Part shown: positions 7,262 to 61,225 of the stretch, piece after piece
Layout: every line of letters begins with the position of its first letter
Position numbering within the stretch: the stretch's first letter is position 1
Origin: an uncultured Clostridia bacterium
Lineage (GTDB): Bacteria > Bacillota > Clostridia > Christensenellales > DTU072
Direction of reading: 5' to 3'
Length of the DNA stretch: 64,000 bases
Assembly: GCA_944362765.1 (NCBI GenBank)
Contig: CALVTP010000001.1
Span: 5,395-69,394, forward strand
Notes under the pieces: generated by a model
What the model was told of the DNA's origin: nothing
Seen by the model: only the letters and a program-made list of their open reading frames with translations
Database searches by the model: none
Translations under genes and position numbers: made by a program

Positions 7262-7269
7262 AACTATAA

Positions 7270-9160: not shown

Positions 9161-9186
9161 TGCGGCGGAACATCGGCGAATTTACG

Positions 9187-39692: not shown

Positions 39693-39812
39693 GCGTCTTT
39701 TTGCTTTTTTCGGAACCGGGAAGAAAAATTAGCGAAAAAAACTTCCCTCCCGAAAAAAATTATATCAACCGGGGGCGCGCCTTCATATATTGTCGTATTG
39801 ACAGGGGGCAAT

Positions 39813-41992: not shown

Positions 41993-44900
41993 ATGGCGCG
42001 TTACAGAATCCCCGGAAAAAATTACTCCAGACGGAGCATATTCGGCATAACGGCGATAGTAGTTGTCGTTGCCGCATTGGTGGCGGCGGGCGTCGCGGTG
42101 GCGGTGCTTCCGTCTGTCGTCGACGGGCATGAGGGTTCGGAATTTGTCACGGACGGCGGGTATACGCGCCCCGTTGTCACGGCGATAGTTTTGGAAAACG
42201 ACGGCAGGATTTCGGTAAACGCCAATCTCGAAAACGTATTTGCGACCGTTCAATATTCCGACGGGAGCGTCGAGCAGGTGGCTTTGTCCGAAATGCTGAT
42301 AGAAGGACTCGATCTGACTCAGTCGAATACTTCGTCGGACGTCGTTCTGGACTTCGGCGGATTCAAACAGAGCGTCGTTTTCGAGGTCATACCGACGACG
42401 CTGACGGTTACATACATAGCGGGCGAGGGCGGTTCGGTAGAGGGCGACCTCATCCAGGAAGTAATTGCGGGCGAAGACGCGACGACGGTGAGAGCCGTTC
42501 CCGACGCCGGGTATGAGTTTGTGCGTTGGACGGACGGTTATCCCGAACCGGAAAGGCGCGACAGGGCGATAAGCAAGACGACTACGTTGCAGGCGGTATT
42601 CAGAAAACAGACATTCACGGTGGTATTCTTCTATCCCGACGGCACTACGGCGAGGGAGGAGACGGTGCAGTACAACATGTCTCCGACGGATATCCCCGAT
42701 CCCGACGAAGGCGAAATGCGTCTGTACGGATATCGCTTTGCCGGCTGGGACACCGATTACAGTCATATAACCCAAGACACCGAAATTCACCCGATAATGG
42801 TCAAGCATGCCATAGACCTGAACTTCACGGCGACGTCGGACGGCGACGGCGCTTTGGGAGGCATACAAGACATTATGCCCTACTATCCGATAGGGCAGCA
42901 GACGGTATTGAGGCTGACCCCGAACACCGAAAGGGTATTCCTCGGCTGGGAGATTACCGACAAGGACGGTTCAGTCGTCGAATTCCCCGCCGACAACATA
43001 ACGGGAGAAGGGTACAGTCGGTCGGTTTCGCTGTTCGACTCAATCTCGGTGACGTTTACCGCCGGGCAGACGGGCACGGAAGGAAGAAACGAATATACTT
43101 TGTCGTTCACCATTCCCGAAGGGGCGGTAACGGGCACTTTCGACCTCAATATCCACGCCGAGTTTGCTTATAGTAAGAGCATAGTCACCTTCGTAAGCCA
43201 AGGGGCTTCCGGCAACTTATATAGTGCCGAACTTAATTACGGCACCCCCGTCGGAACGCTTTTTGCGGAGGCGGAAAGCAGGCTTCCCGAGAGATCCGGT
43301 TACGAGTTTGCGGGCTGGTATTACGAACTGAATGAGTCCGGGGCGCCCGATGTATTGGACGGCGACGAGTTCATCGCAATGGACGCGACGCTGACGGCGC
43401 TTTGGGAAAGCCTCAGTTACGATGTGAAATTCATATTGGACGGCATCGATAACGCAGAGGATTTTGAGGGACTTGACGGATATTTCAACGAAGACGGTAA
43501 TAGAGGAATAAGGCTCAGAGTAAAGTACTCCGATACCCTCGAAAGTGCCGTTTCCGGCACGATTGACGGCGTCGAATACGGCGTATATCCCGCCGTCGCT
43601 CCGGAAAAGGAAAATTATATTTTCAACGGCTGGTATGTCGTCGACGCCAACGGCGCCATGACGGAGACCGCCGCTGCGAAAGATTACATAGTAAGCGGCG
43701 ACACGACGCTAAGGGCGAAATTTTTGCCGCGCACGGTGAATGTTAAAATCGTTGCGGACGGCGGAGTCGTCGAAGGCGCGGACAACGTTTCCGTCTTCGG
43801 TTCGGTAATGGTGCCTGTGACGGAAGACTTCTCCTTCCGCACAAAGCCGAATGTCGGGTATTCGCTTGGCGACATCCTGTGGAACGGTGAAACGTACATC
43901 GAAGCTCCCGTCGTCGGAGAGGACGGTTACTTTGACGGCTCCATAGCGGCAAGCGATTTGCAGAAGGTCAATACCGAAGCAACTCTGACGATAATTTTCA
44001 TTCCCGAGAACAATCGTATCACCATAGAAGCGTCGGGCGGCGGCGGAACATTTACTTACAATCTGACGGGAGCCGCGGGCGGAGAAACTTTCGATGTGGC
44101 GGCGGGAAATTCCGCCTACTTCGAAGTGCCCGACGGAAGCTCCGTTACGATAGCCATCCGTCCCTCCAATATCCAGCAAAGGATAAGTTCGGTGTCGGTC
44201 GATTCCGCTCCCGAGATGACGGTGCCGCAGTCGGAATACAACCTGATTCTGGAAGCGGTCGACGCCGACAAGAACATAGTGGTCGAATTCGAAAACGTCT
44301 ATTACTCGATAGACTATCCGACCGAAGAAGAGTGGGAAGGCTATTCGATAAACTCCTACGACGTGACGGCGGGCATGACCCACCTGCAAGGCAGCAACGT
44401 CAAATTCACCGTAACGGCGGAGGAAGGCAAATATATTTCGGAGGTTCGCGTAAACGGCACGTTTATGGACGTTTACAACCTTGAAAACGGCTTGACGGCA
44501 TATTGCACCATAGACGAATTCTACGTCAACGGCGCGCTTTACGAAAATAATGCTCCCGTCACCGGAGTCAACGATTACCGTATAACCGCCATAACCTTCA
44601 ACGTAGCCGGCATCATGCAGAACACGGTGATATCGGTGGCGGCGGAGGATATGTATTATAACGTGTCGTTTTCGGTAGTCGACGAAAGCGGCAATTCCGT
44701 AGACGCGACGCTTTCCCCGGGAGGATCATTCACGGAGGAATACGGCAGCACGGCTTCCGTCGACGCTACGGTGCAGAACATCTATTATATTTATTCCGTT
44801 TACGACAGCGCGCGGGGAGAGACGGAATTGTTGTCGCAGCAGCTGTCTGCTTATCAATATACGACCGAGCCGCTGACGGGAGATACGGAGATAGTCTTCA

Positions 44901-47900
44901 CGGTGCGACCGGCGCTCAGGACGATAACCTTCAGCTTCCCCGCCGGGATAATAGGCATAGAATATAACTCCGCCATTTTGGATATCGGCGCCGAAGAGAC
45001 GACATACACCGTAAGTGACATCGTCAACGGCGGCAATGCCACTTTCAGACTGTATGTGAAATCGGTCGGGTATCAGCTCGACAGCGTCTCTTCCGTCAGC
45101 GATTCCGGAACGATTAACGAAGACGTCGGCTTCAGGGTGACCTCTCATACCATGACCTTCAACTCCGTCGAAAGCGACTACGAGGTCAATGTCAGGGCGT
45201 CCGAAATAAACTACGACGTTGAAATTTTCGCCGTCAACAAAAAAAATGTAACCATAAGTATTGCCGGCGGCAGTCCCGTATCCGGAGACGGCACGGGGAC
45301 AATGCTGGAGCTGACATACGATGCCTACATGAACGGCAGTGCCGAAATAAGCATAATGCTTACCGGTAAGACCGCTCTTTCTGCCGGCGACATCATCGTC
45401 ATGAACGCAACGGGCGGCGATTACGGATACATATATGCCGAAGACGACCCTGAGGAGGGCGGATATTATAAACTGGAGGGCGATGTCTCCAATCCGACTC
45501 TGACCGTGTACAGGATAGCTTCCGATGTCACCATTTATCTGAATATCCACGACAAAGAAGCAAGCTCGATAACCTTCGGCGCTTCGGGCGCAGGCAGTTT
45601 GACCGCCGAAAAAGGCGGAGTATCAATCACGTCCGGCGACCCCGTCTCGGCAGGGGATGAGATAATATTTAAGGCAAAGCTTCAAGGGACAAGTCTTTTA
45701 GGCTTTATGATCGACGGAAGCTGGGTCTCGGCAGACAGCAGCGAAATCGAGTATGCCGACGGCGTATACGAATACATTTATGTTGTGAAGGAAGGCGTGT
45801 CGCCGCAGGTCTTTGCTTTCTTCGGTGAACTTCGCTATCCGGTCATCATTGACACGCAGATATCGGGCGGCACGGTAAGGACGGAGCCCGAATCGGTTTC
45901 CGGCGGAGAGACGCTGAGAATCAAATTCATTCCGGACGAAGGGTACAAGCTGAAGAGCTACAGCCTGACATATAACGCGACAGGCGATACGTATGAAGAC
46001 TGGGCAGGATTGCCCGGCGAGGGCGCTTCCCTGACGGCAGAGTACACCATCAATGAGAATTACAACGGCAGCGTGACGGTAAGAGCCGTGTTCGAACCGA
46101 TAACCTTCTCGGTCGAGTGGGACTACGACGCCCAAAACGGTTCGGCTATTGTTCCGGACGCCGCCACAGAATACGAAGAAATGGAATACGGTTCCGTGTT
46201 ACGGCTTGAAATAAAGGCGAACTCCGGACAATACATTTCGTCGATAACGGTGAACGGGCTGGAGTACGGCGCCGAGAATCTCTCTAACGCAAGCTACGAC
46301 GAAGATCTCCGGAAATACACCTCCGGTACCCTTGAAATCACCGTGCGGACAGATATTTACGTCGTTATCAGTTACAGCCCCGGCGTGTACACGCTGTCGA
46401 TACGCGATAACCCCGGCGGCGTCACTTATGCTTCCTGCGGGAACGGCGCGTACGGCGATGTCGACTCTCTGAGCTTCACCGCCAAGGATGTAATCAAATT
46501 GAAGCTGGAAGCCGAAGAGGGCTATCACATCGAGTCCATAAGAATTCACGGAGAAATTTATGACGAATGGCTCGATTCGGTCGAAGGGATAGAAGATGAA
46601 GTACGGCAGCTGGTGCTGACATTGACCGAAGGCGACGAGCTGCGCGGCGAAGGACTCGGCAATATAGACATCGAAGTTACCTATCGGATAAATGTCTATG
46701 ACGTCGTTCTGAGCGCCTCCAACTCGAGCCCCAACTTTGCCGATTTCGACAGAGTGCCTGCCGACTTCGGTACCGTGACGATATTCGGTGAGGCAGCGGC
46801 GGATTCCTTTGCGGTGGAGCACGGAGCCAATATTCTTGTCGTGGTTTCGCCCGTGCGTTCCAAGCGTTATATCGTCAGCTCCATGACCGTCAACGGCGTT
46901 TACGTGGATATCGGCACGGGTGACGGAGGCATACAAAGCACCGGCGGCAACTATCTGATAAACGTCACCGACGACATCGAAGTCGAAGTAGTGTTCACGC
47001 GCGAAACTTACGGCACCAGTCTTACGGATTATTTCAACAATCCCGCCGGCATCGAGCAGACTACCGGCGTCAACGCCTGGGCGGGCGAATTCTCGTTGGC
47101 GTTTACGCATCCGAACGACTCCTCCCGCGAAGTCATAGCGTCCGCGGAAAACACCTATGAGTACGGTTTAAGGTATGTGCTTACCGCCAATCCGGGAACG
47201 GGATATAATGTCGAAAGCCTCATGATAAACGGAGAGGAGTCCAAGGATTCTCTCGGTTCCGCTTACGTCGTCAGAAGGATTCTCGGCTCCTCCCTCGAGG
47301 TACAGGTGACCTTCGCCATCAGTTTCTACCGCGTAGAGTACACATTCAGCTCCGCAGAGGCTTTTGACAGCTCCGGAGCGCTTATAAGTTACGGTTCCGG
47401 AGCGCTGAACGTCACAAGGCGGGACGAAAGCACGCTGAATCTGTTCGATGCGGAAAGCGATACGACCTACCAACTCGTCAACGGCGGACTCGTAAGGGAT
47501 ATAACCGTAGACGGGAGTACGCTGGTCGCGTGGGTAAGCTACGGCTCCGAATTGACATTTATCGCCACTCCGTCGTTTGCCGATCGCGGCGGAAGGGTTT
47601 CCGATATCGATTTCCGTTCCGCAAATTCTTCCGTCGGCGTCGACCCCGTCGAGGACGGACAGCCGATGGCCCTGACCCGCAGGATAGCCGCCGATTCCAC
47701 GCTTTCGGTGGAATTCGACATAACCGTATACGAGTTTAAAGTTACCTCCGGGGTGGGCGGCAGCGTCGTATTAACGGGCAACATGGACGGAGATATGATA
47801 GATTGGCACCAAGCCGTGTCGATAGCTCTCACCCTTTCTGAAGGTTACGAGCTTCCCTCGGACTCCGTAGCAGTCTATATCGACGGCGTCCTCGACGAAA

Positions 47901-50900
47901 CCAGATCCGCGCAAGCGCGGAGCGCTTTGTCTGAGGGCAGCTGGCAGGTTTCCTCCGTGGAAGGCGATTACGACATTCATATCACTCCCGCAAGAAAACA
48001 TGTGAAAGCTTCGTTCGGCGGGAACTACAAAGTTTCGCACGGTTCGGCGGTTGCCGACTCGAGGCTGACGATCGCAAGGAGCGGCAGGGTGTTCGGAACG
48101 ACTCTGAACGGCACTCTGACCGAGTACGGCGAAGGCGGCAGCATGATGGCGACGTTGGTGGATACGGTAGACGGCGAGTATGTCGGGATTTTGTATAACG
48201 ACTCCGTCACCGTCTCTCTGACCCCCATAGAAGGCTATACGGTACATTCCGCCAGGGTCACGATAACCTCGCTTGAAAACGGCGCGACATTGACCGAATA
48301 CACGCTTGACGATTTCAACGGTATACCCGGTACGGAAGGGAAGAGCCTTACCGTGAATGCCGCGAAAGGCAACATTACAATCGATGTAAGTTATGAAAAG
48401 AAGAGTTACGAGCTGGATATTGTCGTTGCCGGCGGTATCGATTACGGAAGCTTTGTTACGGGTGAACTGACTCCCGAAAGCGGTGCCGGGGTTTCATCGA
48501 TAGCCGACGGAGGACAGGCGGAGCACTACGACAGCCTCAGAATTGTCTTCCGGGCGGATTACGGCTACTACATCTCCTCATTCATGCTCTGCAACAGGAG
48601 AATGGAGATAGGTTCGGGAGCTTCCTCCGATTACATCGTTTCTGCCGAGAAGAACGACTCCAACGAATACGTCTATACCGCTTCCTTTGAAGTCAACGCT
48701 TCCATATTAAACAATTCTTCCGTGATATCGGTAAGCGTGACGTTTGCGCCGCAGCAATTCGTTCTCGAAACGGGTTATACCGGGAATGCGGCGTCGTGGC
48801 TCACTCCGAGCCCCGAAAACGGTTCGTTAAGCTATAACCCCGCCGTCGGCAGCGCCTTCGGATACACACTGGCAGAGGGCTATGAAATAACCGCCGTGAC
48901 GATATATTCCACCTCTGCATGGAGCGCCGATACGGCGAATCCGATCGGGATACTTGACCGGATAGACGCGCTGACGTCGACCGCTAAACCCGGTATCAAC
49001 GAATACCTGAGCCGCACTCCCGCAGGTTCCCCCGCCGGAGAATTGACGATGCGGATAGATATCGGGAAGGAGCTCACTCCTCAGGACACCTCCTCTTCCG
49101 TGCGTTCGATAGTCGACGCGATGGATATTCACTCCGGGGCGGTCACCGTTTATATCGTGTTCAGCGTGGATACGAGTAAGTATGACGTCGATTTCGACGG
49201 TGCTTACGCGGCGAGAGCGGGGGACGGCGACATGATGTTTGGTAATGGCGCTACCGGAAATATCACCGAAAACAGAGTCACTTATATAAGATATGATTGG
49301 AGTTTCAGCTCCCAGGGCGGAACGTCGACGATCCTTACCGGTCATTCCCACGGCACGACGGCAACTTTGACGATAGAGATCCCCTCGCGGAGCGACAGAC
49401 GGTTCGTCTTCGAAGGCATTCAGGAATATGTCGGCGGCAGCTGGGTGTATCTCGAGGACGGCGACGATATCACGATAGAACGGCAGGAAGGCGTAGCCAC
49501 CGTCTCCTATACGATGAAGTCCACCAGAACATTCCGCATAATCTTCTATGAGATGATCGATGTCAATCTGAAGATGACTCCGCTGTATAAATATGTAGGC
49601 GGCAGCTTTGCGTCAGAAAACGTCGGCAGTCTGAATTATTCCGTCTTTGCTTCCGTTTCCGCATCGGCAACCTATTCGGCACCCGCCGGTTTCGACAACA
49701 TCGTGCCGAACGTCGCGGGACTCAGCGAGAGGTTGACGGGAACCTCTGCCGACGCGGCGACAACGGTCTTCTCGGTAAGGTTCGGAGGGGTGCTGATACC
49801 CTCGGCGGTCGATACTTTGGCGACTTCTTCGTCGAGCAGAGCGAATATTTCCTTCTATACCGAACCCGGTCTCGACAACATAGTCCCCGAAAACGGCATT
49901 TCCGTAACGGAGTCTCGGACGCTCTACGGAGCCGACACGGAAATGAACCTTTTGCTGAGCGTTTCCTTCCGCACACAAGGCGAAGATATAGGCACGAGGG
50001 GCGGAACCATCAGCGGCGCTTCCATAAGCGACGGCTCGATCGTCTTCAATCCCGGCGATGAATTGAGCTTTACGTTACAGCCGAATGCGGGCTACCGCGT
50101 CGGCGCCGTCGGATTCCTTCCCGATACCGGTACTCCCGGCGCGGGCGGAAGAAGACAGTTTGCTTCCGAGTACGTCATGATGGAAGTGCCCGCGGATAAC
50201 GGTGGAGAGCTTTCGGACGACGCCTTCCCGTTTACGCTTATTCCCGGCATCGGAGGCAACTACACGCTTCGATTCAACGACTCCGGCGAAGGCATGGTAA
50301 TACGCATACTCTTTATAAAGCAGATAACGTTAACGCGCTCGATATCGCTGTTGGACGGGTATGAATCCCCCGTGTTCTTCAATCAGTTCAAGTGGGAGGA
50401 AAACGCGCTTTGGGAAAGCACGGATAACGACGATTCGGCTTCCGTAATCATCGATTACGGTACCCAAATAAGCCTTCAAGTGCAGGAAAACTTTGCCGCC
50501 GTCACTTCTTCCGACGTGCGTTACCGCTTTGTCGGATACCTGATAAACGGCGTCATGCAGGATCTCACGTTGTCCAGAGCCTACCCCGGTTCCACCCAAA
50601 GGAACTTCACTATTTCCGATGACGCAATGAACGGCGCCACGGTGGCGGGCGGAAGCGGAGTTTTCACCGTCGAGGTAGTGGCGCTGTACCAGCCGGTATA
50701 CACCATTGTCATAGACAACGTGTTTTTCGATACCGACGGTCGCTGCGTCAATCCGGGCTCCGTTACGATGCGGACATATCTATATGATCATTCGCGCGTA
50801 CAATACGTGCAGAACACCTTAGCTCTTGCGGCGGCGACGGGAGACAGCGGAGCGAACGCCACGGACGGCAAGTTGTATTTCAGAGTGCTTGGCGGCATCA

Positions 50901-53900
50901 ACGGAAATTCCGGCAACGCATACAACACCTGGAACGAGAATACGATAACCCTTAATTGGGGACGGGAAGGCTACTCGGAAGGATTTGTTCTGAGAGGCTG
51001 GGAAGTGTACGCTTATGACGGCTCGGGGTGGAGCTGGAAACAGATCGGGAGCGGCAATAACTTCTCGTTCGAAATAAACGCCCTCTTTGAGGAGTCTTAT
51101 TTAAGGTATGTCAACACCAATAACGAGGTAGACAATAACTATACAAACATTTCCGGAGGGCTTAAAAACCATACCGACGAGGGAAGCGGCTATGTTTACG
51201 GTATTCCCGAAGGGAGTGCCTACGACGACTATTGTATAATGATTCGTCCCGTTTTCGAAAAGCAGAACACCATTTACACCATACCCGAAGTGGCGTCTAT
51301 TTATGCGGGAACTTATATCCCTTACGAAAGCGATCAGATGAATCCTCCCGTAAGACCTTCCATAAACGGTAATACGGACAGTTTGCAGAAGAACTTCTCG
51401 CAGGGCACTACGGCGGTGCTGAGACCGAACGTGTCGAACGAGTACGTTTTCGAAGACTGGTGGGTAGATATAATAGGGGAAGACGGAAGCGTTGAGCGCC
51501 ATCGGTTGGAAGCAGGAAGCAATATAACGCTATCCGGCGTCGCCAACCGCAACGGAGAGCCGGCGGAGTTCACTTATAGCCTGACCACGAGCGACGATAC
51601 GGACAAAAACGCGCTCTCCATCGTCATGAACGACCACTACAAAGTCTATGCACGTTACACCGCGCAGCACAAAATGACGATAAGCGCCACGAACATCACC
51701 GCAACCTCCTTCAATGCCGCTTTGCCGAAGCTTAATATCTCTTATAAGCGGACGCCGACGTCCGAAGCGGAAGTTTTGGTAGACGAGGGATTCCCGACGG
51801 ACGCCTTGGAAAAATACGGCTTTACCTTCGTGGGCGGTGTTTTCAGCGGCATGGTCGCGGTCGGAGGAAGGCTCACTGCTTCGTTATCCGTAGCCGGTTA
51901 CAGTTCCGAGCCCGGCGAAATCGACTTCTTCAACCCGCGCTACGACAGGTTCAGCGACGTACACATACAGGTTTCCGGCAAGGATATTTTCGGAACGGGA
52001 CAGACCGGCGACGACGCCGACCAAACGTCCTTGCGCACTCTGGAACAGATTCAGGCATATCTTTCCGGTAATGCCGTGGGCGATGGCGCGGCGATAAGCT
52101 ACCAAGCCTATACCGAACTTCTCGAAACATTCAGTCTGGAGATCGTCTCCAACAGTTCCAAGACAATTACCTTTGATTTCATAAGCTACGGCGAAATCAA
52201 CATCGAAGACGTTTTCACTACGGGGGTCGAGGGCTCCACGGCGGGCGTCAAGCTTCCCGCGGCTTTGGCAGAGGCGCTGGGTTATGACGGAGATATCTGG
52301 GTCTATGACGGCGACGTGAGAGGAGTGGTAAGCGACGCGGACGGGATTGTGGACGGCAATATCCGTATTGCCAACGTGCCGATAATAAGCGGTTCGGGCT
52401 ATGATAACATCTCCGGTGACGCGAAAGAAATGGACTTCTGGCTGAGAATCAGGCACGGTGACGGTACGATAATCACTCTTGACAACAGCGATATCGGCAG
52501 ATTGGGCATAAGCTTTTCCGAAGCTTCCGCATACAAGAAGATTTCCCGCGTTTCGCTGTACGGCACTCCCAGTTCGGGTCTTACGTCCTTCCCGTTCGGT
52601 AATAAGGATGCCGCCGGCGATCATCTCGGAGGAGGCGACGGCACACTCGGCGCGCCCTTCCTGATTTATACGGCGGAGCATCTCAACAGCATAGACAGGA
52701 TATATAAAGGTAATGACGGCGTCATGAGCGGTATTTATTTCCGGCTGGAAGACGATATCGATTTGTCCGGATCGGCTTTCGGAGGCCGTCTCACTGCGGA
52801 CGTAGCGACCGTACAAGGAACCAAACTCAGCATGGGCTTCACCGGCACGCTTGACGGCGACGGACATTCGATAACCAATATAAGCATTAACATTTCCGGA
52901 CAAAACGATTACGTCGGATTGTTCAGCAAGATAGGAAACGGCGGAAGCGTCTCGGATCTCCGACTTTCCGGCTCGGTCATCGCCGAACAAGGGAACTATG
53001 TCGGGATGCTTGCAGGCTATGTCATGGGCGGCAGAATCAGGGACGTCACGATCTTTAATCCCGATGTCTCATCCGGGCAGAACCAAGTCTACGGCAATAA
53101 GTACGTGGGCGGATTGGTAGGCTATATTACGGGCACGAGCGGAGAACAGGAAGCAACGATATCCTTCGGCGCAGATACCGAAACCGTCGTTCTGGAAAGT
53201 ATCGTGGTTTATGCCTATACCGGCGGCACATATGATTCGTCGTCCAAGAATTATACCGGCGGTGTCGGCGGTATCGCGGGCGCTATGGGAGCCTATTCCA
53301 GGATTACGGGGGATTATACCTACACCGGCGAGATACCCGAAGATGAAGCGGCGGCGGGTGAGTTGAATCTGGACTTGGATCTGCTCAGCGCAAATGCCAT
53401 ATTAAGAAGTGTCGTCGTGGTCGGTCAATATGCCTCCGGTATCTTGGTCGGAAGTGTTGAAGACCGCACAAATACCGCCTCAACGGAAGAAGGCTCCGAG
53501 TACAAATTTGCCGTCTCAGGCTTCAAGGTCGAATATGCTACCGGAGACGATCAGACGCAGTCCGGTAAGGCGGCGCTCGGCGGAGCGATAGGCTTTATCG
53601 GGTACAAGGTCGTCGTAGGGCTTTTGGATGTCAACATTGTGGGAACGCACGCTGTTTCGGGCGACAGACCCGATAATACCGTCCAAACATTCACAGAGGA
53701 TCTTGCGCGCTCATTGGGCGTAGGCGGCTTGGCGGGTAATAATATCGGCACGATCAGATATTCCAAAGTGACGGGAGGCGGTTTACTGGACGTCAAAGCC
53801 GGCGCGGTAGGCGGTGTAGCGGGCGTCAATTTCGGTACCATTGAAAATGTCAGCATGCAAATCCGCTTGAAGGTCAACAGGCGTGCCCCGACAGGCGAGC

Positions 53901-54805
53901 GCGGATTGACTGCCGCGTTGGGAGGCATAGCGGGCGTCAACTGGACAAATGCGTCGATAATTGACTGTGAAGTCGCGATGCCGCTCGGTACCTTCGGAGA
54001 CGAGGAGGCGCTGGAGGCAGACGACGCCACTCTGGAAATGATTACCGGCAGCGATATCTACGACCCGGTAGCAAACGGCGGCATGGGTGGCGGCTTGTAC
54101 AGTCAAATCAATTATGAAGACGCGACAAATATCTATGTCGGTCTCGCGACCGGATATAACGGCGGGAGCGCTTACGTCAGAGGCGGCAATTATGTAGGTA
54201 AGATTTTGGTCAATCGCCGTAACAACGATGTCTCCACCGGGCAAAGCTACGTCGGCGGCGCGGTAGGGTACAGCGATTCCACCGTGGCGTCCACCGGTAT
54301 TACGACAAATGTTCATATTTGCTTCTTCCAATACCTCTATGTCGATTCCGATGTGGATGAAAACGTAAAAAACAGAGAGCAAATCCTGAATGTCGGCGGC
54401 ATATACGGTAAATCTTCCGGCGCCGAGGTTTCGGGTACTTACGACGGAGCTCGGATCTATGCCGCATACCTGGGCGGCGGCGATGCATTGTCGCAGGGGG
54501 ATCTTGACCAATCTTCCTGGACGCCGAGTAATGCTTACATGACCGGTACAAATGTAGGCGCGGCGAGAATAAATGTGACTGCAGGAGAATTGACGAAGGA
54601 ATGCCTGATGCCTGCCGACCCTTCCGGATCGATATTGAAAACCTGGTATTATAATGAATCCAACGAATGTCCCAAGTGGGTGCATGATGATGTGCTAAGA
54701 ATTAAGATTAACTGGGCTGCTACTGACTGGTTGCCCCCTGATTTGGAGTTTGGGTGGGGATATATGTACGCCGGCAACGGAAGATACGTAAATATTTATT
54801 CTTAA
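41993..54805 (+). CDS. giant (4270-aa) N-terminally membrane-anchored surface protein with InlB-B/Listeria-Bacteroides-type repeats, serial beta-sandwich modules and a Gly-rich GLUG-like C-terminal region
   Basis: SD AAGGAGA. TM anchor IFGITAIVVVVAALVAAGVAVAVL. Repeats of the Y.F.GW type (AGYEFVRWTDG, YGYRFAGWDTD, SGYEFAGWYYE, ENYIFNGWYVV). Dozens of ~90-100-aa modules with GG(S/T)V ... EGY.(I/L).S..VNG. From about nt 52650: PFLIYTAEHLNSI ... DIDLSG ... FTGTLDGDGHSITN ... YVGGLVGY / GGIAG / GGLAGNN repeats. No LPXTG, SLH or choline-binding tail was recognised. Confidence 0.85.
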   Translation: MARYRIPGKNYSRRSIFGITAIVVVVAALVAAGVAVAVLPSVVDGHEGSEFVTDGGYTRPVVTAIVLENDGRISVNANLENVFATVQYSDGSVEQVALSEMLIEGLDLTQSNTSSDVVLDFGGFKQSVVFEVIPTTLTVTYIAGEGGSVEGDLIQEVIAGEDATTVRAVPDAGYEFVRWTDGYPEPERRDRAISKTTTLQAVFRKQTFTVVFFYPDGTTAREETVQYNMSPTDIPDPDEGEMRLYGYRFAGWDTDYSHITQDTEIHPIMVKHAIDLNFTATSDGDGALGGIQDIMPYYPIGQQTVLRLTPNTERVFLGWEITDKDGSVVEFPADNITGEGYSRSVSLFDSISVTFTAGQTGTEGRNEYTLSFTIPEGAVTGTFDLNIHAEFAYSKSIVTFVSQGASGNLYSAELNYGTPVGTLFAEAESRLPERSGYEFAGWYYELNESGAPDVLDGDEFIAMDATLTALWESLSYDVKFILDGIDNAEDFEGLDGYFNEDGNRGIRLRVKYSDTLESAVSGTIDGVEYGVYPAVAPEKENYIFNGWYVVDANGAMTETAAAKDYIVSGDTTLRAKFLPRTVNVKIVADGGVVEGADNVSVFGSVMVPVTEDFSFRTKPNVGYSLGDILWNGETYIEAPVVGEDGYFDGSIAASDLQKVNTEATLTIIFIPENNRITIEASGGGGTFTYNLTGAAGGETFDVAAGNSAYFEVPDGSSVTIAIRPSNIQQRISSVSVDSAPEMTVPQSEYNLILEAVDADKNIVVEFENVYYSIDYPTEEEWEGYSINSYDVTAGMTHLQGSNVKFTVTAEEGKYISEVRVNGTFMDVYNLENGLTAYCTIDEFYVNGALYENNAPVTGVNDYRITAITFNVAGIMQNTVISVAAEDMYYNVSFSVVDESGNSVDATLSPGGSFTEEYGSTASVDATVQNIYYIYSVYDSARGETELLSQQLSAYQYTTEPLTGDTEIVFTVRPALRTITFSFPAGIIGIEYNSAILDIGAEETTYTVSDIVNGGNATFRLYVKSVGYQLDSVSSVSDSGTINEDVGFRVTSHTMTFNSVESDYEVNVRASEINYDVEIFAVNKKNVTISIAGGSPVSGDGTGTMLELTYDAYMNGSAEISIMLTGKTALSAGDIIVMNATGGDYGYIYAEDDPEEGGYYKLEGDVSNPTLTVYRIASDVTIYLNIHDKEASSITFGASGAGSLTAEKGGVSITSGDPVSAGDEIIFKAKLQGTSLLGFMIDGSWVSADSSEIEYADGVYEYIYVVKEGVSPQVFAFFGELRYPVIIDTQISGGTVRTEPESVSGGETLRIKFIPDEGYKLKSYSLTYNATGDTYEDWAGLPGEGASLTAEYTINENYNGSVTVRAVFEPITFSVEWDYDAQNGSAIVPDAATEYEEMEYGSVLRLEIKANSGQYISSITVNGLEYGAENLSNASYDEDLRKYTSGTLEITVRTDIYVVISYSPGVYTLSIRDNPGGVTYASCGNGAYGDVDSLSFTAKDVIKLKLEAEEGYHIESIRIHGEIYDEWLDSVEGIEDEVRQLVLTLTEGDELRGEGLGNIDIEVTYRINVYDVVLSASNSSPNFADFDRVPADFGTVTIFGEAAADSFAVEHGANILVVVSPVRSKRYIVSSMTVNGVYVDIGTGDGGIQSTGGNYLINVTDDIEVEVVFTRETYGTSLTDYFNNPAGIEQTTGVNAWAGEFSLAFTHPNDSSREVIASAENTYEYGLRYVLTANPGTGYNVESLMINGEESKDSLGSAYVVRRILGSSLEVQVTFAISFYRVEYTFSSAEAFDSSGALISYGSGALNVTRRDESTLNLFDAESDTTYQLVNGGLVRDITVDGSTLVAWVSYGSELTFIATPSFADRGGRVSDIDFRSANSSVGVDPVEDGQPMALTRRIAADSTLSVEFDITVYEFKVTSGVGGSVVLTGNMDGDMIDWHQAVSIALTLSEGYELPSDSVAVYIDGVLDETRSAQARSALSEGSWQVSSVEGDYDIHITPARKHVKASFGGNYKVSHGSAVADSRLTIARSGRVFGTTLNGTLTEYGEGGSMMATLVDTVDGEYVGILYNDSVTVSLTPIEGYTVHSARVTITSLENGATLTEYTLDDFNGIPGTEGKSLTVNAAKGNITIDVSYEKKSYELDIVVAGGIDYGSFVTGELTPESGAGVSSIADGGQAEHYDSLRIVFRADYGYYISSFMLCNRRMEIGSGASSDYIVSAEKNDSNEYVYTASFEVNASILNNSSVISVSVTFAPQQFVLETGYTGNAASWLTPSPENGSLSYNPAVGSAFGYTLAEGYEITAVTIYSTSAWSADTANPIGILDRIDALTSTAKPGINEYLSRTPAGSPAGELTMRIDIGKELTPQDTSSSVRSIVDAMDIHSGAVTVYIVFSVDTSKYDVDFDGAYAARAGDGDMMFGNGATGNITENRVTYIRYDWSFSSQGGTSTILTGHSHGTTATLTIEIPSRSDRRFVFEGIQEYVGGSWVYLEDGDDITIERQEGVATVSYTMKSTRTFRIIFYEMIDVNLKMTPLYKYVGGSFASENVGSLNYSVFASVSASATYSAPAGFDNIVPNVAGLSERLTGTSADAATTVFSVRFGGVLIPSAVDTLATSSSSRANISFYTEPGLDNIVPENGISVTESRTLYGADTEMNLLLSVSFRTQGEDIGTRGGTISGASISDGSIVFNPGDELSFTLQPNAGYRVGAVGFLPDTGTPGAGGRRQFASEYVMMEVPADNGGELSDDAFPFTLIPGIGGNYTLRFNDSGEGMVIRILFIKQITLTRSISLLDGYESPVFFNQFKWEENALWESTDNDDSASVIIDYGTQISLQVQENFAAVTSSDVRYRFVGYLINGVMQDLTLSRAYPGSTQRNFTISDDAMNGATVAGGSGVFTVEVVALYQPVYTIVIDNVFFDTDGRCVNPGSVTMRTYLYDHSRVQYVQNTLALAAATGDSGANATDGKLYFRVLGGINGNSGNAYNTWNENTITLNWGREGYSEGFVLRGWEVYAYDGSGWSWKQIGSGNNFSFEINALFEESYLRYVNTNNEVDNNYTNISGGLKNHTDEGSGYVYGIPEGSAYDDYCIMIRPVFEKQNTIYTIPEVASIYAGTYIPYESDQMNPPVRPSINGNTDSLQKNFSQGTTAVLRPNVSNEYVFEDWWVDIIGEDGSVERHRLEAGSNITLSGVANRNGEPAEFTYSLTTSDDTDKNALSIVMNDHYKVYARYTAQHKMTISATNITATSFNAALPKLNISYKRTPTSEAEVLVDEGFPTDALEKYGFTFVGGVFSGMVAVGGRLTASLSVAGYSSEPGEIDFFNPRYDRFSDVHIQVSGKDIFGTGQTGDDADQTSLRTLEQIQAYLSGNAVGDGAAISYQAYTELLETFSLEIVSNSSKTITFDFISYGEINIEDVFTTGVEGSTAGVKLPAALAEALGYDGDIWVYDGDVRGVVSDADGIVDGNIRIANVPIISGSGYDNISGDAKEMDFWLRIRHGDGTIITLDNSDIGRLGISFSEASAYKKISRVSLYGTPSSGLTSFPFGNKDAAGDHLGGGDGTLGAPFLIYTAEHLNSIDRIYKGNDGVMSGIYFRLEDDIDLSGSAFGGRLTADVATVQGTKLSMGFTGTLDGDGHSITNISINISGQNDYVGLFSKIGNGGSVSDLRLSGSVIAEQGNYVGMLAGYVMGGRIRDVTIFNPDVSSGQNQVYGNKYVGGLVGYITGTSGEQEATISFGADTETVVLESIVVYAYTGGTYDSSSKNYTGGVGGIAGAMGAYSRITGDYTYTGEIPEDEAAAGELNLDLDLLSANAILRSVVVVGQYASGILVGSVEDRTNTASTEEGSEYKFAVSGFKVEYATGDDQTQSGKAALGGAIGFIGYKVVVGLLDVNIVGTHAVSGDRPDNTVQTFTEDLARSLGVGGLAGNNIGTIRYSKVTGGGLLDVKAGAVGGVAGVNFGTIENVSMQIRLKVNRRAPTGERGLTAALGGIAGVNWTNASIIDCEVAMPLGTFGDEEALEADDATLEMITGSDIYDPVANGGMGGGLYSQINYEDATNIYVGLATGYNGGSAYVRGGNYVGKILVNRRNNDVSTGQSYVGGAVGYSDSTVASTGITTNVHICFFQYLYVDSDVDENVKNREQILNVGGIYGKSSGAEVSGTYDGARIYAAYLGGGDALSQGDLDQSSWTPSNAYMTGTNVGAARINVTAGELTKECLMPADPSGSILKTWYYNESNECPKWVHDDVLRIKINWAATDWLPPDLEFGWGYMYAGNGRYVNIYS

Positions 54806-57476: not shown

Positions 57477-58907
57477 ATGAAAAAAAAGATACTTATTACG
57501 GTTGCGATAATGCTTTTGGCGGCGCTGATGACGACGCTTGCGGCGTGCAACACTAGCTACAAACAGGACGCTCTTCCCGACTCTCCCGACGCTTCGGCGA
57601 AAGTGAGTTCCAACGGCGGACTGGCTGTAAAGGTGGGAAATTACATCTATTTCATCAACGGACTTGCCGGACAGGACGGCGATAACGAATTCGACGACGT
57701 CGTAAAAGGCGCCATAATGCGCGTCCCCCTCGATAAAGAAGGCGTGCCGCAACGTGACAAAGTACAGACTGTCGTCCCGAAAAACGTCTATAACTCCGAG
57801 GAAAGTTCCGCTCTCGTCGTAAAGAAAGGCTATATTTATTTCACTACGCCGAACGACGAAAACAACTCCGACGGCGAGCCCAAGACATCGGAAATGATCC
57901 TGATGCGCGCGACGCTGGACGGCTCCAAAATAGAGACCGTCGCCGAGTTCGACGACTACTCTTTAACTTATCGTGTGTCCGATAATTACATCGTCTATCA
58001 CAGGGGGACGGAGTTAAGGCTCATCGATCTGAACGATAAGAAGTTCAAAGACACGCTTATCGAAAGCGGAGTCGGCACCGTCATTTTCCCCGATTACGCC
58101 GATAATGAAAACGCCTTGGCAGACGTCGTTTTTTACACCAAAACTCCCGCCGATCCCTATGCCGATCATAATGAGGTCTGGGCTTACCGTGCGGGCGGCG
58201 CTCCCGTCGAAGCCATCAACGGGCTTAACGATTTCAACAAGGCGTCTCTTCCGCACCCCGGCGGTTACAGTCTGAGCCTTATCGGCGCGGATTTTGTTGG
58301 CGACAGCTCCATCCGCCTGCACTACACAAAGACGGATTCGGGTGCCAATAAGCGCTCTACGGGAGTCTATTCCTATACTTTCGGTGAGGACTTCACTTTC
58401 TCGGAGAGTGCGGAGATCCGCTACACCAAAGGCGTTACCTACACGGCAATCGACTTTGTTTCGGATGAACGTATCCTTGCTGTAGACTCCGATTCCATCG
58501 ACATGATCTACAAGGACGGTGACGAATGGAAGCATATCCCGGTCGTTGAAAAAGCCGCCACCGTCATGGATTTCACCGTATCCGATAAAGAGTACACCTT
58601 GACATATCTCGAGTCCGATGTCATCAAGGTTCTGGAATTCGTCTTCGACCCCTCCGCCGACGAAGTCATTACACTTCAGGATGTGACTACCAAGTTCAAC
58701 TCCGAATATAATTCCGACTGGCTGGGGCTCGACCTTATTGACGGAGTCGTTTACTATTTCAATTCCGACGTTCTGGATAACATCTACTATCTTAATCTTA
58801 ATAAAGTCGATTCGCGCGACGTAAGAACGCAGATACCTCAGAGGCTCGGCGTTTTCTCCGCCCAAGATATAATTTCCATGCTTGAATCCGGCGAGGAAGA
58901 GGAGTAA
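57477..58907 (+). CDS. lipoprotein, probable beta-propeller (DUF5050-like) domain protein
   Basis: Signal peptide plus lipobox (TTLAAC). Recurrent blade-like strings: GNYIYFINGL, KGYIYFTTPND, DNYIVYHRG, GVVYYFNSD. Confidence 0.65.
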   Translation: MKKKILITVAIMLLAALMTTLAACNTSYKQDALPDSPDASAKVSSNGGLAVKVGNYIYFINGLAGQDGDNEFDDVVKGAIMRVPLDKEGVPQRDKVQTVVPKNVYNSEESSALVVKKGYIYFTTPNDENNSDGEPKTSEMILMRATLDGSKIETVAEFDDYSLTYRVSDNYIVYHRGTELRLIDLNDKKFKDTLIESGVGTVIFPDYADNENALADVVFYTKTPADPYADHNEVWAYRAGGAPVEAINGLNDFNKASLPHPGGYSLSLIGADFVGDSSIRLHYTKTDSGANKRSTGVYSYTFGEDFTFSESAEIRYTKGVTYTAIDFVSDERILAVDSDSIDMIYKDGDEWKHIPVVEKAATVMDFTVSDKEYTLTYLESDVIKVLEFVFDPSADEVITLQDVTTKFNSEYNSDWLGLDLIDGVVYYFNSDVLDNIYYLNLNKVDSRDVRTQIPQRLGVFSAQDIISMLESGEEEE

Positions 58908-58972
58908 TTTTCCTTTGCCTGATATTAAATAATATATGCGATATAATTCGCTCACACAAAACCTTTTGAAGA

Positions 58973-58999
58973 AAGTTCGCACTGGTGGCGAACTTTTTT
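58973..58999 (+). terminator. rho-independent terminator after the lipoprotein gene
   Basis: AAGTTCGC-actggtg-GCGAACTT followed by TTTTTT. Confidence 0.8.
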
Positions 59000-59129
59000 A
59001 TAATTTTCTTCCCGCAAAGTTAGAGTATGAGGGCTTTAATATCTCGCAAAGAAAAAACCTTATGGAAAAGCTTGTACACACGTACGAGCTTTTTCAATAA
59101 GGAAGGGAAAGAGACGGGAAGAAAATTAT
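59000..59129 (-). mobile_element. MITE-like element copy U1 (~130 bp, intact TIRs, inverted relative to U2/U3)
   Basis: Termini ATAATTTTCTTCCCGC ... GACGGGAAGAAAATTAT. Internal long hairpin at 59058-59102. Aligns along its full length to the reverse complement of U3. Confidence 0.7.
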
Positions 59130-59349
59130 ATAGCCGCGGCTAGGGGCATATTTCACGGCGCTTTCGGACGAAAGAAACAAGTTTCCTCCCTTCGGGAGTT
59201 GTCTCGGAGCGTATGTCTATACAGCCCTTCGACAATTTCGCCCGAAACCGCAACCGGTAGAGGCTTTATCGCCTCCGCCGGTTGCTTCGCCGCAAACTAA
59301 CGCAAACAAGACTCCTACTTGTTCAAACGCCTTATATTCCTTTTGCTTG

Positions 59350-59393
59350 CCCCAATCCGCTGCGTATCTCACGGTTTACGCAGTAGTCTACAT
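59350..59393. repeat. left arm of a 44-nt long-range inverted repeat
   Basis: CCCCAATCCGCTGCGTATCTCACGGTTTACGCAGTAGTCTACAT. 39 of 44 positions match the reverse complement of 59741-59784. Confidence 0.85.
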
Positions 59394-59575
59394 TGTTACG
59401 CTTTACTTAATAGTGTGAGTTGTTTTTTATTGACCCCGCAAAATTGATGTACAATTTTTTAATCACCCGCAAAATCTATCTTTCTAAGACGATATCTCTT
59501 CCTTCTCTTCGGTATTATAAGAGTTGGCTCCAAAACGGACAGTCGCTTCGCTCCTGTCCTGCTACGTGGCTACGA

Positions 59576-59700
59576 AATAATTTTCTTCCCGCAATCAATA
59601 GCTCCTTATGAAAAAAGCTCGTACGGGGTACGAACTTTTCCATAAGGTTTTGTTTTCTCGAACAATTAAAGTTTTCTTACTTTAATTTAGCGGGAATGGC
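59576..59700 (+). mobile_element. MITE-like element copy U2 (right terminus degenerate)
   Basis: Left TIR AATAATTTTCTTCCCGCAA at 59576-59594. Hairpin at 59604-59647. The right end TTAGCGGGAAtggc has lost the outer TIR bases. Confidence 0.65.
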
Positions 59701-59740
59701 TACAACCGACACCCCCTCACTATAAAATACAGTCGTCGAG

Positions 59741-59784
59741 ATGTAGACTATCGTGTAAACTGTGAGATACGGAGCGGATTGGGG
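59741..59784. repeat. right arm of the 44-nt long-range inverted repeat
   Basis: ATGTAGACTATCGTGTAAACTGTGAGATACGGAGCGGATTGGGG. Weaker homology continues ~30 nt further toward the inside of the segment on both arms. Confidence 0.85.
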
Positions 59785-59928
59785 CGATATTGGGGGTGAT
59801 TTTTCGCGAAGCACCGGAAGGAGTGTACAAAGATGTACATGACTGGAGGTGCCCATAGGGTGTAACCCTTAAAATCCTATACACTTCGCGGAAAGGCGCC
59901 CCCAAGAGCGCCCCAAGACGCGGGTTGA

Positions 59929-60061
59929 AATAATTTTCTTCCCGCAATCAGGTCTTACCTTATGAAAAAAGCCTGTACGTGCGTACAAGCTTTTCCACAA
60001 GGTTTTGTTCAAGCGAGCAATAAAAGTACTCTTACTTTAATCTTGCGGGAAGAAAATTATT
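59929..60061 (+). mobile_element. MITE-like element copy U3 (133 bp, perfect 19-bp TIRs)
   Basis: AATAATTTTCTTCCCGCAA at 59929-59947 and its exact reverse complement TTGCGGGAAGAAAATTATT at 60043-60061. Hairpin at 59958-60002. The right end touches the stop codon of the SIS gene. Confidence 0.75.
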
Positions 60062-61091
60062 TCGTAATAGTGATTTTGGTACGATTCCTTGGTGCGTCGG
60101 GATTGATGCCCAGCGCCTCAGCCATAAACGCCACATACAACTCCACAGCCAGAGAATAAATAAACGGTGCGTTCATGCCGCGGCAGGTAGGCATATCGAG
60201 GCACTTAGAGGACATTCTTTTGACTTCGCTGATATCGGTAAAAGATATGATATTGGCTCCCAAAAGCCCGAGTCTGGTAGCCATACTTATAAATTCGTTG
60301 GTGAATTCGGAATCGGGAGCCAGGAGAAGGACGGGGGTGCCTTCCTCGACTACGGAGATAGGTCCGTGCATAAATTCCGAGGTAGAGAAGGAGCGGCTGA
60401 GCTTATAGCACGACTCCATCATTTTCAAAGAGAGTTCGCTGGCGGCGCATTGCGGAAGTCCGCGGGTGAGGATAAGAAAGTTGTTTATGTTCTGTGTCGA
60501 TTCGGCAAACGCCTTGATGGTATCTTTGTATTCGTCTATAAAGTCCCTGAGGAGGGGCGGAAGTTCCGCGGGGTTCATTCTTGCGGGGATGGGGGAGAGG
60601 GCGTTCGAAAGAAGGAACATTGCCACCAGCTCCGCGAGGAATGTTTTGGTTGCGCCGACGCTTTGTTCCTCTCCTGCGGCGAGGTCGATATGGAAGTCGG
60701 CTATTTTTGCGAGCGGCGATTCGGCGTTATTGGTGACGGCGACGGTGAGGGCGCCGGTTTCCTTTGCGGCTTCCAGCACCATGTGCGTATCGGTGGACAT
60801 GCCGCTTTGAGAAATAGCCAAGACCATATTTTTGGAGAGGTTGACTTTGGCTTTGTAGACGGTGGTGATGGAGGGAGTGAATTTGGAGACCATAACTTCG
60901 CCGATGGCTTCGACGATATATTTAAAATAAGTGGCGGCGTTGTCCGAGGTGCCGCGTGCGACTGTAGTTATGTTGGTGATACCGCGCGCTTTGAATGCTT
61001 TGGCAATGTCTTTGATGACCTGTTTGTTCTGAGCCATGACGTTTCTTACGACGTCGGGGGCAGCCAGGAACTCATTCAACATTACGGACAT
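60057..61091 (-). CDS. SIS-domain sugar-phosphate isomerase/deglycase (GlmS isomerase-half / FrlB / AgaS-like)
   Basis: Two SIS repeats (VARGTSDNAATY ... LAISQSGMSTD). C-terminus PRNRTKITITK parallels the GlmS-type ending PRNLAKSVTVE. ATG at 61091 has SD AGGAGAG; the ORF-track TTG at 61112 is less likely. Confidence 0.8.
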   Translation of the reverse strand: MSVMLNEFLAAPDVVRNVMAQNKQVIKDIAKAFKARGITNITTVARGTSDNAATYFKYIVEAIGEVMVSKFTPSITTVYKAKVNLSKNMVLAISQSGMSTDTHMVLEAAKETGALTVAVTNNAESPLAKIADFHIDLAAGEEQSVGATKTFLAELVAMFLLSNALSPIPARMNPAELPPLLRDFIDEYKDTIKAFAESTQNINNFLILTRGLPQCAASELSLKMMESCYKLSRSFSTSEFMHGPISVVEEGTPVLLLAPDSEFTNEFISMATRLGLLGANIISFTDISEVKRMSSKCLDMPTCRGMNAPFIYSLAVELYVAFMAEALGINPDAPRNRTKITITK

Positions 61092-61225
61092 ATTATGCTC
61101 TCCTAACGACACTTTTGTAATATGATGTAATTATTATATGCTATCACGGTATAAAAGTAAAACGAATTAAGTTGAAAATATTGATTAATTTCTCCCGACT
61201 CTTGCGGCAGCGGCATGGCGGTGCA

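Follow-up and report, generated by a model that had tools for sequence, protein, structure and literature searches.

Near one end of a 64,000-nt stretch of DNA from an uncultured Clostridia bacterium (contig CALVTP010000001.1, positions 5,395 to 69,394; the whole stretch is called the window below), two convergent genes are separated at their 3' ends by an intergenic gap of 1149 bp (58908-60056) that contains several related, hairpin-rich repeats. What are these repeats, and how did they come to lie directly behind the two genes? An initial annotation described three copies and set two readings beside each other, one in which they are MITEs (miniature transposable elements bounded by inverted repeats) of the IS630/Tc1 type and one in which their fold matters, as RNA or as a DNA cruciform. 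The reading that we favour, with moderate confidence, is that the gap holds recombining arrays of putative terminator and small-RNA modules, built from an undescribed repeat family of ~125-131 bp that belongs to a lineage of uncultured Clostridia. Two arrays oppose each other in the gap. On the plus strand, the 476-aa gene is followed by U0, U1 and cargo segment X and then by arm remnants; on the minus strand, the SIS-domain gene is followed by U3, Y', U2 and then Z, which is cut off where the arrays meet. The parts, in window coordinates, are as follows (a slash marks a junction here and below):

57477-58907, plus strand: the 476-aa gene, which matches DUF5050 weakly; a degenerate arm, TTTTCC..., comes directly after its TAA stop (58905-58907)
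58905-58999, plus strand: U0, which is either a degenerate unit or the 476-aa gene's native terminator; TAA/TTTTCCTTTGCC, a hairpin (58969-58999) with T6, far arm absent
59000-59129, plus strand: U1, complete and oriented in the sense of the 476-aa gene; arms 59000-59014 and 59115-59129
59130-59436, minus strand: X, non-coding cargo that folds better as RNA on the minus strand
59437-59480, plus strand: two degenerate arm-like repeats (CCCCGCAAAATTGATG... and CACCCGCAAAATC), remnants of an internal unit that once followed X, aligned with the internal-unit junction
59481-59576, minus strand: Z, read in SIS sense the beginning of a third type of cargo, cut short where the opposing arrays meet
59577-59697, minus strand: U2, an internal unit in the sense of the SIS gene; far arm (59577-59594) complete, near arm truncated
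59698-59929, plus strand: Y', cargo of type A, 232 nt, folding better as RNA on the plus strand
59930-60060, minus strand: U3, the complete gene-proximal unit in the sense of the SIS gene; arms 59930-59947 and 60043-60060
60057-61112, minus strand: the SIS-domain gene, whose real start probably gives 344 aa; native end ACG AAA TAA

U1, U2 and U3 are related units, each with inverted arms and two hairpins, an internal identity of 77-81% and the common terminus ATAATTTTCTTCCCG(CAA). Their coordinates agree within 1-3 nt with those first annotated, and sequence comparison bears out that U1 is inverted relative to the other two. The arms read (TAA)TTTTCTTCCCGC and pair perfectly; their core is TTTTCTTCCCG, and the arm-core pair of the family is TTTTCTTCCCG...CGGGAAGAAAA. 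The inverted repeat is perfect over 16 nt in U1 and over 21 nt in U3 (59927-59947 with 60043-60063), where perfect termini had already been recognized. The order of parts within a unit is a pyrimidine-rich arm, a small variable hairpin, a GCTCGC box, an A-rich linker, a long hairpin bordered by A-runs and U-runs, a U6 tract and the inverted arm. Long hairpins are present where they had been placed (59058-59102, which in U1 includes the T-run, 59604-59647 and 59958-60002), as are the short hairpins that change sequence between copies (~59019-59040 in U1). The units are AT-rich (GC 36% vs 52%) and contain no conserved ORF; a 25-aa peptide on the opposite strand (MKK...LFHKV...) was discarded, being absent from the Stercoripulliclostridium-type units described below and having no ribosome-binding site. 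When the 18-mer ATAATTTTCTTCCCGCAA is searched with up to 3 mismatches, all 5 matches in the window fall in the gap region, against 0.07 expected from shuffles. The six single-strand folds of U1-U3 give z scores of -4.9 to -9.3, and each unit folds better on the sense strand of the nearer flanking gene, with minimum free energies of -50.4 kcal/mol for the plus strand of U1 (z -9.0) and -55.6 kcal/mol for the minus strand of U3 (z -9.3).

The count of three copies stands for these units, and the region also holds U0, the arm remnants at 59437-59480 and three cargo segments. U0 is called by a terminator scan and is conserved in all strains, and its hairpin is 76% identical to that of U2 over 42 nt; its match to the unit profile (nhmmer E=0.43) is not significant, so we did not accept it as a bona fide unit and retain it as a possible one. 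U2 had been taken to have a decayed right end. Its near arm is indeed shortened, to GCGGGAAT (59690-59697), and joined to GGCTACAAC (59698-59706), but this junction is a conserved one that recurs in every internal unit of every strain.

The family is not confined to the window. A scan of species-representative genomes for paired arm cores returned 13 matches, five of them true relatives: four on separate contigs of the metagenome-assembled genome (MAG) of Candidatus Stercoripulliclostridium merdigallinarum and one in 'uncultured Clostridia BRZ_GG bin9', all five adjoining contig ends. The remaining eight have neither palindrome extension nor internal similarity and were set aside as chance matches. 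A repeat in an unrelated metagenome contig (L021:3303-3425), with a 30-nt perfect inverted repeat, a TTTTCTTCCCGCAA core and a 70-nt GC-rich spacer, was likewise judged a chance match; its 11-nt palindrome extension is unusual among such matches. Exact-protein look-ups of flanking genes in the ENA, Logan and NCBI assemblies added ~50 further loci, and the sources of the family are gut metagenome assemblies labelled BRZ_, ONAT22-1 and ERZ16268..., together with the S. merdigallinarum MAG (L-numbers denote the retrieved loci or contigs that were compared with the window).

In these sequences the family occupies six or more gene ends in at least three genomes, so the repeat whose uniqueness had been in question does have copies elsewhere. 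Without exception, a unit begins on a gene's stop codon or within 4 nt of it and has the orientation of that gene, so that its long hairpin and U-run are in gene sense; the unit sequence starts right after a TAA that is the stop codon itself or lies 0-1 nt beyond it:

SIS gene (window, L022/23, L047-56): ACG AAA TAA/TTTTC
rplQ, the last gene of the alpha operon (L003, L057-66): GTG TAA/TTTTC or GTA TAA/TTTTC
GGGtGRT protein gene (L004, L009): AAA TAA/TTTTC
class IV aminotransferase gene (L010): TAA A TAA/TTTTC
MFS_2 transporter gene (L012): TAA TAA/TTTTC
476-aa gene (window, degenerate copy U0): GAG TAA/TTTTCC

Orthologous sites in relatives are empty, and three of these gene ends could be compared with their empty counterparts. 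After the SIS gene, related species (L024-31; 92% and 88% identity) read ...ACGAAATAA/CGTCGCC... and then have their own terminator, so that the native end ACG AAA TAA is kept in species without the unit. Empty GGGtGRT sites (L033-46) read AAATAA/TCCAC... or AAATAA/GCGG..., and empty rplQ sites (L067-74) read GTGTAA/CGGTCATACC... (/CGGTC), with a plain terminator and the coaX promoter in a gap of 157 bp. Because the empty sites keep an identical native gene end, the family DNA begins at TTTTCTTCCCG, directly after the TAA. No direct duplication is found at any of the three loci; at the SIS locus only the left boundary can be read, the sister-species DNA beyond the unit being unrelated. The proposed TA target duplication of the IS630/Tc1 type thus finds no counterpart, since the left boundary lies after the native TAA and the gene end is copied into the far arm in inverted and not in direct orientation.

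Several other features were seen at these sites. A SIS orthologue of 88% identity has no arms, and its 3' flank (L032:2789-2900) weakly matches the unit interior (nhmmer E=8e-5), including the terminator followed by CATAAGG; this flank could be the decayed form of an ancient unit, or else the native terminator that gave rise to the unit hairpin. In sister species, the SIS gene is followed (L024-L031, about 6036-11035) by a tRNA gene and then by a DNA methylase with AIPR or by GmrSD, and the GGGtGRT gene (L035-L039, about 6003-11002) by a tRNA gene, a 293-aa tyrosine integrase and then STALD/TIR_2 or other cargo depending on the strain. The positions behind both genes are general variation hotspots, with strain-variable cargo of the defence type in sister species.

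Multi-locus occurrence with empty orthologous sites and strain-variable arrays would also be expected of a classical MITE, that is, of non-autonomous derivatives of a DDE transposon (IS630/Tc1-like or other) that are moved by an unlinked, arm-binding transposase. The hairpin and the fixed orientation would then reflect selection on the surviving insertions, and the cargo would be passenger DNA of composites bounded by two units. The units have the appropriate size (125-131 bp, the limit being 300 bp), are AT-rich and ORF-free, and have arms of 15-21 nt. The insert of one locus (L048; unit-cargo-unit) is bounded by complete outward arms, and an arms-only mini-unit of 67 nt exists (L060:4990-5056), in which two complete arms are separated by ~37 nt, the long hairpin is absent and the position is that of U1 in the window; arms can evidently persist without the terminator. 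The arm core does not vary between two unit types that are otherwise very different, which suggests recognition by a protein, and because of this identity in otherwise diverged units a transposase-driven MITE stays the main rival. On the other hand, direct target duplications are missing at the three loci with empty sites, where the flanks of the core are an inverted gene-end copy, and neutral TA/TAA targeting followed by selection would not readily give six independent junctions in a single orientation within 4 nt of a stop codon. One arm of every internal unit is missing its outer 9 nt. No transposase adjoins any unit in about 70 retrieved loci; the initial statement that the window has none, extended here to integrases, holds for all large ORFs scanned, a single 4270-aa ORF (41993-54805) having been left out of the scan. 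Searches of viral contigs (with the X motif and with paired arms) and BLAST searches of plasmids and phages found no family copies, and the paired-arm pattern gave five chance matches and no copy in JGI metagenomes. We regard a MITE origin as unlikely. Of that proposal, the real repeat family, its conserved inverted termini and the stem-preserving changes stand; the TA duplication and the scattered, free-standing insertions do not, the units being instead the repeated part of ordered unit-cargo-unit arrays that start on a stop codon in gene sense.

A second property ties the units to the genes that they follow. Outside the 11-nt core, the inverted repeat runs on into coding sequence, and this extension is locus-specific: the far arm contains an inverted copy of the last 4-16 nt of the gene. 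The extension is at least 4 nt (TTAT) in the family, compared with 0-2 nt in the chance matches. Examples are:

rplQ: gene end GAATTAGTGTAA, far arm TTACACTAATTC, 11-12 nt perfect
rplQ of S. merdigallinarum: gene end TTGGAATTAGTATAA, far arm TTATACTAATTCC
SIS gene: gene end TACGAAATAA, far arm TTATTTCGTA (U2 and L022), up to 10 nt

With one mismatch or indel allowed, the mirrored segment at rplQ reaches ~15-16 nt (L064, L003). In the window, the SIS stop codon (60059-60057, minus strand) falls inside the near arm of U3, and the far arm of U2, taken with the adjoining TACGAA (59571-59576), repeats the final bases of the SIS gene in inverted form and makes a perfect inverted repeat of 24 nt with 60043-60066. 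At rplQ both arms have G before the TAA, where the other loci have A, and the far arm follows the GTG/GTA difference between species. Because this base tracks the gene, the 'ATAA' terminus and the 'TA' brackets are copies of the stop-codon region, neither an intrinsic end nor a target duplication; the brackets that had been considered as flanking target DNA lie inside an A-TAA...TTA-T block that is constant or co-varies with the flanking gene. Among rplQ operons that are 99.4-99.8% identical, some have a 'window-type' unit at this site and others a 'Stercoripulliclostridium-type' one, and in the latter the far arm matches GTA TAA though the resident gene reads GTG TAA, which points to import from a donor lineage.

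An inverted, templated copy of the gene end that varies in length is the product that would be expected of quasi-palindrome template switching or of one-ended gene conversion. Quasi-palindrome template switching is a bacterial replication error in which imperfect inverted repeats become longer and more perfect as an arm and its flank are copied. The far-arm copies resemble such a product, with the difference that template switching is a mutational process and not an element family, and usually concerns short hairpins, whereas here the arms are ~100 nt apart and the event would have occurred repeatedly. In a related species, the GGGtGRT gene is followed by a tRNA-Thr gene and then by two tandem modules of 223 bp (L040:5098-5560), each opening with a 25-bp perfect palindromic terminator whose arm contains the tRNA 3' end (ATTAGCTCCA). 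The structured segment of these modules shares an identical 16-nt stretch, TGCGTTAGTTTGCGGC, with cargo X. This looks like a second case, in tandem, of a gene end copied into a terminator palindrome next to a structured RNA. Homology of X to the 223-bp modules is tentative, as the overall alignment is barely above shuffles (z about 3-4), and a hammerhead ribozyme hinted at by CTGATGAG in L040 has no Rfam support.

We considered whether the fold of the units is maintained at the level of RNA, as the initial annotation had suggested for the strand in which the single non-Watson-Crick position of the long hairpin reads as a G·U pair. The strand polarity of that position is as it was described, and the larger set of units extends it: over 30 distinct units the long hairpin, read in gene sense, has 33 G·U pairs against 0 A·C pairs, the pattern that an RNA terminator would show. 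The 8-bp hairpin core occurs in ten variants among these units, nine of which contain one or two G·U pairs, at six positions overall. In a comparison of 12 units, a structure of three helices pairs 93.4% of cells, compared with 44-57% when the partners are slid; changes on both sides occur at 7 pairs, and in the arm helix 8 of the 16 pairs are invariant in sequence. The unit consensus folds with -22.8 kcal/mol in gene sense as against -11.9 on the other strand. In gene sense, the hairpin consists of the 8-bp core with an A/U extension followed by U5-U6; on the opposite strand, an extended stem (CCUUAUG.../...CAUAAGG) is followed by UUUUGUUUU, so that the hairpin could also terminate in both directions. 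We read the unit as a putative strand-asymmetric intrinsic-terminator module. As the array starts right after the TAA of the stop codon and in gene sense, the first unit would be the 3' untranslated region and terminator of its gene, and probably terminates transcription of that gene.

No known RNA family accounts for the unit. At the gathering score, Rfam 15 has no match in the window, L003, L004, L010 or L022, and relaxed searches returned chance-level matches only (E<=10 for the window region, E<=5 for L047 and L048). The recurrent near-matches, all below threshold, are leaders of amino-acid operon attenuators, on the gene-sense strand only; matches to miRNA, snoRNA and leader families were dismissed as generic hairpin matches. 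There are no tRNA genes in the gap region. The idea that ATAAGG behind the U-run is a terminator motif common to the lineage was also rejected, since the motif is confined to the units and the SIS terminator of the sister species.

These RNA-level signals bear on another possibility, that the palindrome acts only in DNA, as a cruciform or hairpin, for example in an inverton or at a hotspot of replication or repair. Perfect inverted repeats of 16-30 bp about 100 bp apart are well suited to such a role, arm-to-arm copying must take place in DNA, and flipping of the strand-asymmetric core would alter termination. However, no flipped allele occurs among about 30 distinct units from >25 assemblies, the 33-to-0 polarity of G·U pairs is an RNA signature that moreover breaks the DNA palindrome, and a conserved promoter-like signal is aimed at the units. 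A role confined to DNA is the least probable of the explanations considered here, and we think it highly improbable.

The promoter-like signal lies in the cargo. Units alternate with 230-420 bp of non-coding cargo whose ends are conserved and whose interiors vary; the only cargo ORFs are spurious ones that are not conserved between copies. In gene sense, the last ~60 nt of a cargo contain TC(T/A)ACA, a spacer of 16/17 nt that is variable in sequence, and TATAGT, and the next unit begins ~25 nt further on. The plus strand of X has TCTACA (59387-59392), a 16-nt spacer and AATAGT (59409-59414), and the minus strand of Y' has TCTACA (59747-59742), a 17-nt spacer and TATAGT (59724-59719), pointing into U2. 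Across 12 distinct copies the hexamers vary little or not at all, and they are weakest where the downstream unit has decayed. They have the appearance of a sigma-70-type promoter aimed at the next unit, and the predicted transcript from this promoter to the U-run of the unit is ~105 nt long, which suggests that each internal unit is a gene for a small RNA.

The body of the cargo may be read on the other strand. A closing helix, in which GCGGAUUGGGGC pairs with GCCCC.AGACGC, is kept in all cargo types and in the Stercoripulliclostridium copy, with compensatory (A-U to G-C) and wobble changes; it joins 59133-59148 to 59348-59360 in X and 59774-59786 to 59909-59924 in Y'. In 15 of 15 copies the strand opposite the flanking gene gives the more stable helix, and in 13 of 15 it also gives the better fold of the whole cargo. 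Within it lies a hairpin of wholly different sequence between copies, which in X is a hypervariable perfect hairpin (59252-59284). The cargo may encode a structured RNA on the opposite strand.

How do the arrays change? Ten strains have an identical SIS protein, a close variant of that of the window, and together with the window and L022 they present four types of first cargo:

type A, 232 nt: window, L053-56
type B, 282-304 nt: L022, L047, L049
type C, 409-422 nt: L048, L051
type D, 247 nt: L050, L052

The gap between the SIS and 476-aa genes is 701, 745, 1149, 1192 or 1214 bp among strains, and that between rplQ and coaX is 512, 747 or 1247 bp. The rplQ arrays contain the same families, including Z of the window with an inverted X block, and the 67-nt mini-unit; the sequence of Z is present after the first unit in L048 and in the array of L060 at rplQ. 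The block Z+X+U1 is missing from L048 and L050, and the break falls exactly between two direct copies of CGGGAAGAAAATTA in the arm. More generally, strain breakpoints sit inside units or arms, and the units are mosaics of a few alternative segments, which implies frequent recombination or conversion. Many contigs end inside arrays (L015, L051-L056 and L061-L066; L014 and L016 end at window position 59287, exactly at the hypervariable hairpin of X), and because so many independent short-read assemblies break there, the locus is systematically missing or truncated in MAGs.

Arrays in one orientation with conserved palindromic sites and variable cargo, strains that differ by whole modules and the same modules at two loci recall cassette-like site-specific recombination. 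The unit would in that case be a folded site, analogous to attC, and modules of cargo plus unit would be moved by an unlinked recombinase, with a crossover core such as TTCCCGC and new modules entering next to the gene. The uniform hybrid junction GGTTGTAGCC/ATTCCCGC, found at every internal unit along with the loss of the outer 9 nt of the near arm, would suit such a crossover. The units, however, have no attC core motifs (RYYYAAC / GTTRRRY) and, because their arms are perfect, no extrahelical bases; the cargo is gene-free; and there is no integrase among the scanned window ORFs or beside the arrays, those of L035-39 belonging to tRNA-linked islands in a species without units. Mosaic units and variable breakpoints also fit general homologous recombination better than a single crossover point. 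We consider cassette recombination very unlikely; the integron-like cassette system and the inverton both fail their defining tests.

In the favoured model of terminator and small-RNA modules, the first unit would serve the host gene, and each internal unit would be expressed from the promoter of the preceding cargo to give a terminated RNA of ~105 nt. The body of the cargo would be transcribed on the opposite strand and end at the hairpin of the previous unit, which would act as a two-way terminator. Arrays would grow, shrink and shuffle by general recombination between repeated units or arms, and the arms would be kept identical by templated copying from one to the other, through quasi-palindrome template switching or one-ended gene conversion. 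Such arm-to-arm copying would also explain the inverted gene-end copy in the far arm.

Several points weigh against this model. The promoter, the terminator and both RNAs are read from sequence alone, and all data come from metagenome assemblies of one bacterial lineage. The simple terminator scan calls U0 only and no unit hairpin, the latter being missed because its U-run and A-run are paired with each other. The cargo has a modest preference for one strand (-51.7 vs -43.2 kcal/mol for three sequences), and in type C cargo the other strand gives the better fold; the weakest link is the opposite-strand cargo promoter, whose candidate shares the TATA block and has a poor -35. An arm core of 11-15 nt is identical in two diverged unit types, and such invariance without covariation looks like a protein-binding site, for instance a transposase end; RNA function and arm-to-arm copying alone do not obviously explain it, and nothing in the model explains the exact placement after the stop codon. 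The assignment of the rplQ contigs to the same or a sister species rests on co-occurrence in samples and on X-segment scores (280 bits for the rplQ-contig X segment and 309 for the window's own against the X profile, with the whole shared block 83% identical), and the copy number in the window's own genome beyond this locus is known only indirectly.

A further reading is a genetic module of a new kind, in which arrays of non-coding RNA genes would be anchored at stop codons and would colonise the 3' ends of housekeeping operons by templated copy-in, through hairpin formation or template switching, and not by cut-and-paste. The shared promoter region would drive the ~105-nt RNA with its pyrimidine motif in one direction and a helix-closed, hypervariable RNA of 200-400 nt in the other, with two-way terminators between them, and this route of entry would leave an inverted copy of the last codons of the gene in the far arm. 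We give this version a low probability. The near arm (12 nt after the stop) falls within the expected footprint of a terminating ribosome, so the module could couple the termination of translation to transcription termination or read-through.

The closest described element is SPRITE of S. pneumoniae, a small AT-rich repeat with a long stem and a U-rich tract that has been proposed to be a co-opted terminator, is strongly enriched near gene 3' ends and between convergent genes, and has no established target duplication (2011, PMC3049150). Set beside it by description, the window family has a similar fold and 3'-end, convergent position. It differs in that the termini of SPRITE are just AAAA/TTTT, that a stop-codon start, a gene-end copy and promoter-bearing cargo arrays are not reported for SPRITE, and that the hosts belong to different phylogenetic groups. 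Bacterial MITEs such as the Correia (Neisseria), RUP, ERIC and bcr1 elements are non-coding repeats of 100-200 bp with terminal inverted repeats, stable RNA folds and strain-variable presence, and they can provide neighbouring genes with promoters, terminators or RNase III sites (PMC10969869, PMC3184786). Correia and RUP are accompanied by direct duplications, of TA or of other sequence, and are found in either orientation and near to or farther from genes, in contrast to the family described here, with no direct duplication, a fixed orientation, a stop-codon start and ordered cargo arrays.

Integrons share with the family the one-orientation arrays of variable cargo, the palindromic sites (attC, 57-141 bp, conserved in structure over sequence) and the whole-module differences between strains. 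The family departs from them in having no attC cores, integrase or attI, in its non-coding cargo and in arrays that start at the stop codons of several unrelated housekeeping genes. REP/BIME and REPIN-RAYT palindromes are GC-rich, imperfect and 20-40 nt long with a GTAG/CGTC head, whereas the units are AT-rich (36% GC), about 130 nt long and headless. A limited literature search found no account of a start at the stop codon, of a palindrome extended in a gene-specific way, or of units that alternate with helix-closed cargo bearing a promoter. The chance is substantial that the array of non-coding RNA modules, and the way in which it spreads, are new.

Among the large ORFs of the window, those scanned encode housekeeping functions, which include arginine synthesis, carbamoyl-phosphate synthase, oxaloacetate decarboxylase, RecD2 and transporters. 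Just upstream of the repeat locus stands the 4270-aa ORF (41993-54805), which has Flg_new-type repeat domains according to precomputed hits and is a candidate giant surface protein. The ORF for the carbamoyl-phosphate synthase large subunit (19908-23921, 1337 aa) includes a C-terminal diaminopimelate epimerase domain (residues ~1216-1317), which is either an unusual fusion or the result of a missed stop or frameshift. At 39798-41831 (677 aa), a phosphoglucomutase/phosphomannomutase is joined to a hexapeptide-repeat transferase domain, with the appearance of a GlmM-GlmU-like fusion.

If the favoured model is correct, a repeat family would hold the exact 3' boundary of core genes (rplQ, the phosphosugar isomerase and transporters) in Clostridia of the gut (chicken), supply the terminators of those genes and build fast-changing arrays of candidate small RNAs behind them. 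Since the arrays differ between strains that are >98% identical in their flanks (99.4-99.8% at rplQ), they may be useful as strain markers. The family also raises the questions of how DNA comes to be placed so precisely after a stop codon, how coding sequence becomes part of an inverted repeat, and whether an RNA structure at the 3' end that is linked to the termination of translation controls read-through.

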